Virus record (IMG/VR): IMGVR_UViG_3300014205_000194
Span: 1-64,000 of that record
DNA length: 64,000 nt
Source of the DNA: a virus
Taxonomy: Duplodnaviria; Caudoviricetes
Reading direction: 5' to 3' (one strand)
Shown: piece after piece, positions 51,968 through 55,178 of the stretch
Numbering within the stretch: the first letter of the stretch is position 1
How the letters are laid out: every line of letters starts with the position of its first letter
The notes under the pieces: model-generated
What the model saw: the letters and a program-made list of their open reading frames with translations, nothing else
Database searches by the model: none
What the model was told of the DNA's origin: nothing
Program-made: the position numbers and the translations under genes

Positions 51968-51994
51968 ATTTCGATGTAATAATCAGGAGCAAAG

Positions 51995-53491
51995 ATGTTC
52001 TATACAAACGCAACGTTAGTAGGAAATAATATTCTGCTGCGCCAGGTAAAAAATGGCAAGCGAATGAATTCTAAAATACCATATTCCCCTAAACTCTATA
52101 CCAAATCCAATAATAAGACTGGCTGGAAAACTATCCACGAAGAATATTTGGAAGAGTTACCATTCTCTGATATATACGAAGCAAAAGACTTCTGTAAGAA
52201 ATATGCCGACATTCCGAACTTCGAAATCTTCGGAATGACCAACTATACCTATGCCTTTATCTCTGATAACTATAAGGGCAAGATCAATTGGAATATGTCA
52301 GATATTTGTGTGGCATATACAGATATTGAAGTCGATTCTTCCAACGGATTTCCAAATCCGGACACAGCTGATTCGGAAATAACTGCCATTACAATGATCG
52401 TTGGAGACAGGACTCTCGCGTTCGGACTTCCCAATTATAAAAAACACAAGGAAAATGTCGAATACTTCAAGTGTACTAACGAAGTTGCCTTGCTAGAATC
52501 ATTTATTTCTTATTGGACTCTATTCTATCCAGACATTGTTACTGGGTGGAATTCCAAGCAGTTCGATATTCCCTATCTTGTCAATCGTATCCGTCGTCTG
52601 TTGGGCGATGAAGCAGTAAACAAACTGTCTCCGTGGGGCAAGGTTTCTCAGTATAAGACGGAGTTTCGCGGAAAAGAATCAATCAGTTACGATATCCTCG
52701 GAGTAATGCACCTAGATTATTACGAACTATATCGTAAGTTCTCGCCGGCACAGAATCAAGAAAACTTCAAACTGGACACAATCGCGGGCGTAGAGCTCGG
52801 CGACAGTAAGGTAGATTATGCTGCCCTTGGATATAAAGATCTCACCGATCTATATGAACGCAATCCACAACTATACATCGAATATAACATCAAAGATACA
52901 GAGATCGTCGTTCGGCTCGAAGAGAAGCTGAAGCTAATTGAATTGGCTCTTACTATTGCATACGATGCCAAGATCAATTATGAAGATGTATTCTCCCCCG
53001 TAAAGACCTGGGACGTTATCATCTACAACTATCTTAAGGAAAACGGCTATATTATTCCGCCGAACAATAAGCGGGCCAACAAACAAGCATATGATGGCGC
53101 GTATGTGAAGGATCCTGTTCCTGGGTTCTATAAATGGATATCGTCGTTCGACTACGAGTCTCTTTATCCAAAGCTGATCATGATGTATAACATATCACCC
53201 GAGACATTAATCGAGCCATATGATTACACAGAACAGATGTATGAAATTGTTTCGGGTCAGACAATTAACGTTGACGCAATCGTAAAGAAAACAGTAGATA
53301 CATCCAAACTAAAAGAATTGGGCGTGACTCTAACTCCCAATGGACAACTGTTCAATATTCAGAAAGATGGATTTCTTCCTGTACTAATGAAGCGCATGTT
53401 CAATGATAGAAAGATGTATAAGAATAAAATGTTGGAATGCGAAAGGGAATTGCAGGAAGTTAAGAAAGAGATGACAAAGAGGGGGTTGTAG
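51995..53491 (+). CDS. gp43: DNA polymerase B, N-terminal subunit (gp43A: exonuclease, motif A, first fingers helix)
   Basis: DIEV, TGWN...FDIPY, YNIKD, YDGAYV, SFDYESLYP. Ends at ...ELQEVKKEMTKRGL-stop. Confidence 0.93.
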   Translation: MFYTNATLVGNNILLRQVKNGKRMNSKIPYSPKLYTKSNNKTGWKTIHEEYLEELPFSDIYEAKDFCKKYADIPNFEIFGMTNYTYAFISDNYKGKINWNMSDICVAYTDIEVDSSNGFPNPDTADSEITAITMIVGDRTLAFGLPNYKKHKENVEYFKCTNEVALLESFISYWTLFYPDIVTGWNSKQFDIPYLVNRIRRLLGDEAVNKLSPWGKVSQYKTEFRGKESISYDILGVMHLDYYELYRKFSPAQNQENFKLDTIAGVELGDSKVDYAALGYKDLTDLYERNPQLYIEYNIKDTEIVVRLEEKLKLIELALTIAYDAKINYEDVFSPVKTWDVIIYNYLKENGYIIPPNNKRANKQAYDGAYVKDPVPGFYKWISSFDYESLYPKLIMMYNISPETLIEPYDYTEQMYEIVSGQTINVDAIVKKTVDTSKLKELGVTLTPNGQLFNIQKDGFLPVLMKRMFNDRKMYKNKMLECERELQEVKKEMTKRGL

Positions 53492-53503
53492 TCCCCCCCC
53501 CTC
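53479..53503 (-). terminator. G/C hairpin overlapping the gp43A stop, terminator-like for the minus-strand frame
   Basis: gaggggg-ttgtagt-ccccccccc-tc. On the minus strand it is followed by tcttt. Confidence 0.5.
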
Positions 53504-53756
53504 ATACCCACGTGTGATCTTCGTTATATTCGTAATCGGAAATTGGTATGGCGACTACTCCCAATTCTATTAGTTGTTTGGCGGCTTTTGTCTTTTTATC
53601 GTCGACACGTTTAACAGAAGATAGAGTTGCTTTGGTGGTTTCTATACCAAGATTGCGCATGTGTTCTGCAAATCTAGAAATATTAGATGAATGAGGTAAA
53701 ACATAAACGCTGTTTTTATCCCGTTTGTCGATTACAATAGGTGTATAATTTAATTC
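53502..53756 (-). pseudogene. 84-codon open frame lacking a 5' start, probable remnant of an inserted gene (e.g. homing endonuclease) at the polymerase split
   Basis: ELNYTPIVIDKRDKNSVYVLPHSSNISRFAEHMRNLG...YEYNEDHTWV*. Bounded upstream by TAG. Confidence 0.45.
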
Positions 53757-53773
53757 CTAGCGAGGTGATACAA

Positions 53774-53878
53774 TTGAGTATAGAAAGTTTAACAAACGAA
53801 GAACTAATCATTCGTCATAAAGAACTCAGTAATGACGTAAGTAAATATAATAATCTCCAAATGGCAACAAAAATCCTT
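53774..53878 (+). CDS. gp43: DNA polymerase B C-terminal subunit (gp43B), exon 1, 35 codons, missed by the ORF track
   Basis: gaggtg RBS plus TTG. MSIESLTNEELIIRHKELSNDVSKYNNLQMATKIL is the second fingers helix up to motif B. Confidence 0.88.
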
Positions 53879-54134
53879 TAATGATGGAGGCGCTTATTCG
53901 TGAGGATAGGTGGAAAACTCTGTGAATTCGGTGAAACTCCAGAACGGACGATACCGAGCCAAGCCCATTATATGGGAAGGTGTAACGACTATTCCTACGG
54001 GAAGTACAGCCAAGTGGCTGGAAGCGCAGAGCAACTGATTCAGTTGATGAGATAGTCTAATCTGTATAGGAATATACAGCAATCTATGGATAGATTTTGG
54101 TATGGTATTAACGACACCATATGAATATTAAATG
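53879..54134 (+). ncRNA. Group I intron (IA2-like, 256 nt, no ORF)
   Basis: Exon ends in U, paired U-G with IGS GAGG. P3 ctctgtg/cgcagag, P4 ttcggt/accgag, P7 gactat/atagtc, P7.1, P7.2, P8 caactga/tcagttg, P9 stems. Terminal G. Splicing restores KIL|LNSLYGG. Confidence 0.92.
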
Positions 54135-55178
54135 CTTAATAGTCTCTATGGAGGATTAGCGAACGAATGGTTCCGCTTTTTCGACGTTCGTATGGCAGAG
54201 GGCATTACATCGGCTGGTCAGGTGGCAACCAAGAATATGGAACGCTGGTTGAATGTTTATTTAAATTCCATCACGAAAACTAACAAAGACATAGCCGTTT
54301 ATGCGGATACTGACAGTCTCTATATTTCACTCGAAGACATAGTCAATGCCGTGTTTAAAGATGCGCCCGATACAAAGAAAGTTATTAAATTTATGGACAA
54401 AGTTTGCTCCGATAGAATTACACCAGAGATTAATCGTATCTGCGAAGAACTAAAAGAGTACGTCAACGCCAAGGAAAATTCTATGGTAATGAAGCGCGAG
54501 GCGTTGATTGATTCTGCAATTTGGGTGGCCAAGAAGAGATATATCCTCAGTATCCATAATAACGAGGGAGTCGAATACGCAGAGCCTAAAGTCAAGGTTA
54601 CTGGGTTGGAGTCTGTTCGATCTTCTACTCCTATGATTTGTCGCAATAAAATTAAAGAAACGTATACAATTATGCTCTCGGGCGATGAAATGGAGACTCG
54701 AAAATACATCGCTGCATTCAAAGATGAGTTTACTTCTGCACCATTAGCCGATGTATCATTCCCGCGTGGTGTAAATGGTATGGTTGATTACAAAGATAAG
54801 TCTAAACAAAACACAACAATGGGCACTCCCGATATACAGAGTGAAATTAGACGATCTCCTTATATCAAAGGTACTCCGATCCACACCAAAGGCGCCCTAA
54901 TATATAATCACCTACTCGACACCCTCAAGTTAACCAAGAAATATCCTAAGATTACTGACGGCGATAAGATTAAGTTTGTCTATTTGAAAATGCCTAATAT
55001 TATCAATAGCGAAGTGATTGCGTTTCAAGATGCATTGCCTAGAGAGTTCAAGCTAGATGATAAAGTGGACTATGCCAAGCAATATGAAAAGACCTATCTA
55101 GAGCCTATTAAGAATGTATTGAATGTATTGGGCTGGAAAGCGGAAGAAGAAAGTTCACTAGAAGATTTATTTGGTTGA
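54135..55178 (+). CDS. gp43: DNA polymerase B C-terminal subunit (gp43B), exon 2
   Basis: LNSLYGG (motif B), YADTDS (motif C), MKRE, AKKRY, GLESVRSSTP, C-terminal SLEDLFG clamp-binding motif. Confidence 0.93.
   Translation, partial: LNSLYGGLANEWFRFFDVRMAEGITSAGQVATKNMERWLNVYLNSITKTNKDIAVYADTDSLYISLEDIVNAVFKDAPDTKKVIKFMDKVCSDRITPEINRICEELKEYVNAKENSMVMKREALIDSAIWVAKKRYILSIHNNEGVEYAEPKVKVTGLESVRSSTPMICRNKIKETYTIMLSGDEMETRKYIAAFKDEFTSAPLADVSFPRGVNGMVDYKDKSKQNTTMGTPDIQSEIRRSPYIKGTPIHTKGALIYNHLLDTLKLTKKYPKITDGDKIKFVYLKMPNIINSEVIAFQDALPREFKLDDKVDYAKQYEKTYLEPIKNVLNVLGWKAEEESSLEDLFG

Follow-up and report, generated by a model that had tools for sequence, protein, structure and literature searches.

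A split gene for a T4-like DNA polymerase (gene 43; product gp43) lies at positions 51,995 to 55,178 of the window, the 64,000-nucleotide (nt) stretch of the IMG/VR virus record IMGVR_UViG_3300014205_000194 that was analysed here and to which all coordinates refer. The gene consists of two cistrons, 43A and 43B, arranged on the same strand in N- to C-terminal order, broken within the fingers domain and each provided with its own ribosome-binding site and start codon. The second cistron is in turn interrupted by a group I intron within catalytic motif B. The features of the locus are as follows.

51985..51989, plus strand: ribosome-binding site of 43A, AGGAG (sequence reading)
51995..53491, plus strand: gene 43A, N-terminal polymerase subunit of 498 amino acids (aa), start ATG, stop TAG (open reading frame (ORF), Pfam and RB69 alignment)
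53479..53503, plus strand: G/C hairpin GAGGGGG / CCCCCUC over the 43A stop codon, terminator-like when read on the minus strand
53492..53773, plus strand: untranslated spacer between the cistrons, 282 nt, non-coding
53762..53769, plus strand: ribosome-binding site of 43B, GAGGTGAT, 4 nt ahead of the TTG
53774..53878, plus strand: 43B exon 1, 35 codons from TTG, descending finger helix up to K-I-L of motif B (ORF and homology)
53875..53890, plus strand: P1 helix CCUUUA / UGGAGG, with the U53878-G53887 wobble at the 5' splice site (fold)
53879..54134, plus strand: group I intron, 256 nt, without an endonuclease ORF, in-frame UAA first and G54134 last (RF00028, fold, covariation and the homologue in relative L225)
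53918..54079, plus strand: catalytic core P3-P9 (Rfam, fold and covariation)
53918-24 with 54025-31, plus strand: P3 (fold)
53987-53991 with 54053-54057, plus strand: P7, GACUA / UAGUC (fold)
53992-54003 and 54007-54020, plus strand: P7.1 and P7.2 hairpins, a subgroup IA feature (fold; both covary)
54032-46, plus strand: P8 (fold)
54062-79, plus strand: P9 (fold)
54132..54134, plus strand: called start ATG, identical to the last three bases of the intron
54135..55178, plus strand: 43B exon 2, 347 codons and TGA (ORF, Pfam and RB69 alignment)

The two polymerase cistrons

The product of 43A contains the exonuclease domain (Exo I-III), motif A (DYESLYP) and the ascending finger helix. Matches were obtained to PF03104 (PolB exonuclease) and to PF00136 positions 21-146, corresponding to the first third of the PolB polymerase domain. 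Residue 492 of gp43A aligned with residue 502 of RB69 gp43, which places the end of the protein near RB69 residue 508, within the finger-tip loop, where an earlier reading made from the letters of this DNA alone (the sequence-only reading) had put it. Exon 2 of 43B aligned to RB69 residues 563-901 and carries LNSLYGG, the remainder of motif B, together with motif C (YADTDS), KKRY and the thumb. Motifs A and C and KKRY are intact across both ORFs, while motif B is complete only after predicted splicing.

The missing part of the fingers is encoded by exon 1 of 43B, a micro-exon beginning near RB69 residue 528, its TTG lying behind GAGGUGAU. Its peptide ends in ...NNLQMATKIL, with K33 equivalent to RB69 K560, and a TAA follows directly at 53879-53881. 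The existence of this exon had been proposed from its TTG codon and Shine-Dalgarno sequence and was borne out by homology. A phmmer search with the peptide matched 47 of 119 gp43B homologues, against none for 50 shuffled versions, and the peptide aligned without gaps to the N-terminal regions of split gp43B proteins that lack the intron (P0059, P0067 and P0029). No significant match was found in PDB, Pfam or PHROGs, the peptide being too short.

The spacer between the cistrons showed no match to an RNA family in Rfam, even at E 1, no second copy within the 92.9-kb record, and neither similarity to the endonucleases of Aeromonas phage 25, relative L005 and the DUF559 group nor any nuclease remnant. 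It is moderately structured (z -2.4), the plus strand folding as a long imperfect hairpin of approximately 110 nt. A second intron, by which 43A and 43B would be spliced together across the spacer, was considered but discarded, given the absence of an RNA-family match and the relatives, in which translation restarts separately only 2-31 nt past the 43A stop codon. The minus strand of the spacer contains a 52-aa ORF (53502-53660) without a family match, followed on the same strand by a terminator-like G/C hairpin (53474-53505).

The IMG/VR record behind the window comprises 92,871 bases, with completeness estimated at 54%, and probably derives from a landfill metagenome. Among cultured phages, T4-like cyanophages have the polymerases most similar to that of the window, with approximately 47% protein identity, and its nearest relative in IMG/VR, L008, is 55% identical. 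Gene order is T4-like, the polymerase being followed by a small ORF and then a gene of the RecA/UvsX type (cf. L004 and phage JSE). The record is a metagenomic fragment and L008 has an unbroken gene, both of which would accord with a pseudogene undergoing decay, on a contig that is defective or wrongly assembled, its break and insert functionless. This explanation is very improbable. Both ORFs are intact with every catalytic motif present, and the split gene is the only copy of polB in the 92.9-kb record. Near-identical DNA is also present in contigs from a second, separate study, one of which bridges 53644-53991, from the spacer through exon 1 into the 5' part of the intron, and the architecture is kept in phages, described below, that are only 45% identical at the protein level.

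The group I intron and the motif B junction

A covariance search with Rfam model RF00028 corroborated the 256-nt group I intron without an ORF that had been suggested at this position. The match, at 53869-54079, extended over the full model (1-253) and, at 81.3 bits (E 4.2e-19), exceeded the gathering score of 50. Folded at minimum energy, 53866-54145 contained P1, P2, P3, P4-P6, P7.1, P7.2, P8 and P9 in addition to two further hairpins, so that the U-G pair of P1, the P3-P9 core, P7.1/P7.2 and the terminal G named in the sequence-only reading were all recovered. The stability of this fold (z -3.1) was equalled by none of 200 shuffles. In an alignment of five homologous phage introns, 30 of 53 pairs exhibited compensatory changes on both sides, and the core shares 72-80% identity with group I introns that interrupt terminase, ribonucleotide reductase and other genes in many cultured phages. 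The td, nrdB and nrdD genes of T4 contain group IA2 introns with P7.1 and P7.2 and an in-frame stop just inside the intron. The intron of the window resembles these in its P7.1 and P7.2 hairpins, its early in-frame stop and its location in a phage gene of nucleotide metabolism or replication; by the presence of P7.1 and P7.2 it is a candidate member of subgroup IA2. Unlike that of the window, the T4 introns carry endonuclease ORFs, intact or truncated, and reside in unsplit genes.

Excision of 53879-54134 joins AAA ATC CTT to CTT AAT AGT in frame, giving KIL/LNSLYGG (the slash marks the junction), as had been claimed. The joined sequence is without gaps relative to intron-less homologues and the junction falls between RB69 gp43 codons 562 and 563, the first residue of exon 2 being RB69 563. 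The predicted ligated RNA would read ...AAAATCCTT/CTTAATAGT... at the splice junction, and the spliced gp43B would hold the junction peptide ILLNSLYGGLANEWFR. No join skipping the intron and no intron-less allele were seen in the contigs of the four DNA runs examined.

The gene caller of the source record began 43B at the ATG of 54132, yielding a 348-aa protein (P0001) and missing the micro-exon, an error that the sequence-only reading had foreseen. The presence and use of this codon would fit an intron that no longer splices. The enzyme would then consist of three pieces, gp43A, a free 35-residue peptide supplying the lysine in trans and a gp43B initiated at ATG 54132, or else gp43B would work without the lysine. 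We regard either form as improbable. Over the full length of the model the ribozyme core greatly exceeds the score threshold, and P1, its U-G pair and the terminal G are placed exactly for an in-frame, gapless junction. The ATG has no ribosome-binding site ahead of it and is missing from the introns at the same site in the uncultured relatives L225 and L120, which end in AAAGG and AAAAAG, respectively. The motif B lysine (RB69 K560) is also catalytically important in family-B polymerases.

Taken together, these data suggest, with a probability of about 85%, that the locus encodes the gp43 of an uncultured T4-like phage in two cistrons broken at the finger tip, the second of which contains a self-splicing group I intron. 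The 498-aa gp43A would be translated from ATG 51995. In the transcript of 43B, the CCUU at the end of exon 1 would pair with the guide GAGG (U53878-G53887) and guanosine would attack after U53878; the terminal G54134 would then take the G-site and the exons would be ligated. Translation from TTG 53774 on the spliced RNA would produce a gp43B of 382 residues, in which the micro-exon would provide the descending finger helix and bring the lysine of motif B next to NSxYG. Without splicing, only a 35-residue peptide would be made, because the intron opens with an in-frame UAA and ATG 54132 has nothing like a ribosome-binding site ahead of it. The two subunits would be expected to assemble via their two antiparallel finger helices, a mode of assembly demonstrated for the split polymerases of Aeromonas phages.

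Several observations weigh against this interpretation. The start codon of 43B is TTG, a rarer type. No sigma-70-type site passed in a promoter scan of the spacer, which contains a TATAAT at 53744-53749 but no -35 element at the proper distance from it. No clear P10 pairing was found, C54135-G53886 alone lining up. No homing endonuclease lies beside the intron and none was detected by GIY-YIG or HNH_3 (Pfam) searches of the 92.9-kb record, while phrog_655 gave no match either here or in any control genome and is thus uninformative; the history as a cassette relic proposed below draws on the relatives, the spacer being devoid of a nuclease remnant. Finally, no RNA run is listed as containing sequence from 53400-54600, so splicing and exon ligation are inferred rather than observed, as are subunit assembly and evolutionary history.

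Split polymerase genes in other phages

The sequence-only reading considered a two-subunit polymerase with a spliced second subunit to be a combination not previously described. While the anatomy and the proposed use of splicing to gain the motif B lysine are supported by the computational tests above, the supposed novelty is not: a split polymerase of this kind is known since Aeromonas salmonicida phage 25, and introns at the same site occur in split genes from IMG/VR. The GenBank annotation of phage 25 (NC_008208) lists 43A (498 aa), a gene for a homing endonuclease of 268 aa and, as a joined feature, a 43B 'split by group IA2 intron'; the intron was confirmed here with Rfam at 64 bits. As in the window, the T4-like polB of phage 25 (43A, seg43(25) and 43B with intron 25.g43B; Petrov et al. 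2006, 2010) is split at the finger tip, 43A is 498 aa long, and 43B, initiated at a start codon of its own, begins with a short 5' exon, after which the motif B region is interrupted by a group I intron that lacks an endonuclease ORF. The phage 25 intron is reported to be self-splicing without its own endonuclease and is predicted to rely on a free-standing endonuclease for mobility, and its split gp43 products are described as co-purifying and showing polymerase activity (PMC2993671 and PMC2988022, as they cite Petrov et al. 2010, J Mol Biol 395:457).

The two loci differ in the position of the intron and in the content of the gap. Exon 1 of phage 25 ends in ...KILINSLYGAL, with the intron between the codons for RB69 570 and 571, and so holds the whole of motif B, whereas the intron of the window lies 8 codons upstream and parts the lysine from NSxYG. 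The cistrons of phage 25 are separated by the GIY-YIG-like 268-aa endonuclease gene, in contrast to the 282-nt non-coding spacer of the window. The similarity between the two introns is weak (70% over 79 nt), and the host lineages are distant. Particular to the window, then, are the insertion site inside KxxxNSxYG, the absence of an adjacent homing endonuclease and its distant landfill/groundwater lineage. Three gene calls from uncultured relatives (P0042, P0064 and P0120) begin with MG(S/N)(Q/E)YFRF directly past NSAYGAx, which is the phage 25 intron position, and the site used in phage 25 may by this sequence criterion also be occupied in these relatives.

Aeromonas phage 44RR2.8t and T4-like phages of Acinetobacter have a bicistronic 43A/43B with untranslated intercistronic sequence, the complex of the two products being the polymerase (PMC2988022). 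The window shares with them a break in the fingers domain and a non-coding spacer, but their 43B has no intron. Gene 43 of phage JSE has its intron at another place, two coding sequences of 402 and 468 aa being annotated with a gap of 527 nt. A further break, at approximately gp43 residue 430 and hence upstream of the finger tip, was observed in another group of relatives (L018:1551-2222; P0008, P0009 and P0021), with an insert of approximately 670 nt and a C-terminal gene of 451 aa.

Among uncultured relatives in IMG/VR the finger-tip split was also found in L003, L004, L005/L006, L031 and L069. A quick tree of the relatives scatters the split forms, forcing at least five changes of state; L008, the sister of the window in this tree, is unsplit and intron-less. 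The gene following 43B in L003 (L003:5129-7009), a split relative without the intron, contains intein-type domains (PT-HINT and Intein_splicing). A pattern for the intron core was found in at least 119 IMG/VR stretches, about ten of them in T4-like polB genes. The relatives with a motif B intron, all of which are split at the finger tip, were as follows.

L225, L189 and L171: junction KIL/LNSAYG, the same site as in the window; exon 1 of 36 codons with its own ribosome-binding site and ATG; intron of 250 nt; spacer of 194 nt without a nuclease gene
L120 and L118: junction KIA/INSLYG, the same site as in the window; P1 AUCGCU/GGUGAU; intein at the DTDS motif
L160, L200 and L156: 2 nt upstream of the window's site, phase 1 in the codon after K-V; P1 GUGU/GCAC
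L206: phase 2, inside the leucine codon of NSLYG

The first two groups share with the window the finger-tip split, a short non-coding spacer, a micro-exon of approximately 36 codons and an intron of the same family at K-x-x/x-N-S. The micro-exon of L120 likewise has its own ribosome-binding site and start codon. The L225 intron is 69% identical to that of the window overall, and more so in the core, while the spliced 43B products are 45% identical. No paper on the arrangement in either group was found, both being known as database sequences. The guide covaries with the exon (CCUU/GAGG, AUCGCU/GGUGAU and GUGU/GCAC), and because it changes in step with the exon in each case the splice-site assignments are supported. 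The covariance score, the covariation, the matches to the exon 1 peptide and the homologous introns at the same site exclude chance as the origin of the intron and micro-exon.

The same intron family occupies two further positions within approximately 10 nt (L160/L200/L156 and L206), and motif B is, as judged from these sequences, a hot spot for insertion. In L120, L160 and L206 an intein-like insertion was also observed directly after the DTDS of motif C, e.g. YADTDS followed by VAGDSVIRING..., so that a polymerase gene of this type combines split, intron and intein.

Frameshift relatives and the history of the locus

A different interruption of motif B was observed in 20 related 43B genes split at the finger tip (L004:3934-5035 and L091-L109). 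Here a micro-ORF of 37-55 codons ends in ...AKKVxL* and the remaining polymerase follows in the +1 frame. The sequence AAA AAG GTG nnn CTT TAA C is invariant in all 20, the degenerate positions of the search pattern all being fixed. The site lies inside motif B, one codon downstream of the intron site of the window, and consists of a Shine-Dalgarno-like AAGGUG, a spacer of 3 nt and CUU UAA C, the architecture of the +1 site of E. coli prfB. Exon 1 of the window ends in CUU UAA, the hexamer of this conserved site, from which it might be supposed that the micro-ORF is joined to the rest of 43B by +1 ribosomal frameshifting and not by splicing. This is extremely unlikely. The stimulatory AAGGUG is missing, the window having ACAAAAAUC CUU UAA U, and the +1 frame past 53878 closes after 7 codons. 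The protein resumes 256 nt downstream rather than in the +1 frame, and a complete ribozyme fills the gap. Splicing remains the preferred explanation for the window.

Mutually homologous DUF559-type nuclease genes of approximately 250 aa are located between 43A and the micro-ORF in eight of the 20 frameshift loci. A ninth, L104, has an ORF of 229 aa in the gap with no detected similarity to the DUF559-type nucleases, and in four loci only 26-31 nt separate 43A from 43B. Nuclease genes of three unrelated kinds occupy the interval from 43A to 43B among the relatives: GIY-YIG-like (phage 25), HNH-like (L005) and DUF559-type (L093 and others).

Cassettes for collaborative homing or immunity are described for several phage systems, including T4 mobA with the 50-nt bypass of gene 60, the polymerase intron and free-standing endonuclease of T3/T7-like phages and the psbA intron of cyanophages (PMC5009743; PMC10448857, as it cites Bonocora & Shub 2009 and Zeng et al. 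2009). The locus of the window resembles these in that a gene split by a selfish element continues with a short 5' coding piece (approximately 35-46 codons) before an interruption that is removed or skipped in expression, and in that a conserved catalytic motif harbours a group I intron that has no endonuclease of its own. As in the mobA/gene 60 cassette of T4, 35-46 codons separate the split from the motif B interruption downstream of it. The window differs in having no endonuclease gene, and mobility or immunity would here belong to its past. Most likely, the split, the micro-exon and the motif B interruption are the relic of a homing-endonuclease cassette of the phage 25 type from which the nuclease gene has been lost, and by analogy the window, L225 and L120 look like cassettes after such a loss.

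A more general proposal, to which we give somewhat less than an even chance, is that the split, a micro-exon of 35-46 codons and the motif B interruption travel together as the footprint of a homing cassette. The intron (window, L225, L120 and phage 25) and the prfB-like frameshift (the 20 relatives, many with a DUF559-type nuclease gene) would then be interchangeable devices shielding the motif B DNA of the cassette from cleavage.

For the specialist the locus is a further example rather than a surprise. It nevertheless adds a second, distinct intron insertion site inside the KxxxNSxYG of T4-like polymerases. The 348-aa 'DNA polymerase' called in the record is, as far as can be judged from the sequence, wrong, the true gp43B probably having 382 residues and requiring RNA splicing. 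The micro-exon is invisible to gene callers, and the same error is likely in related metagenomic records. The few codons around motif B of split gp43B appear as a hot spot that has gathered introns, a conserved +1 frameshift and nearby inteins. If the cassette reading is true, the window represents a survivor without its nuclease, in which splicing would now be obligatory for replication.

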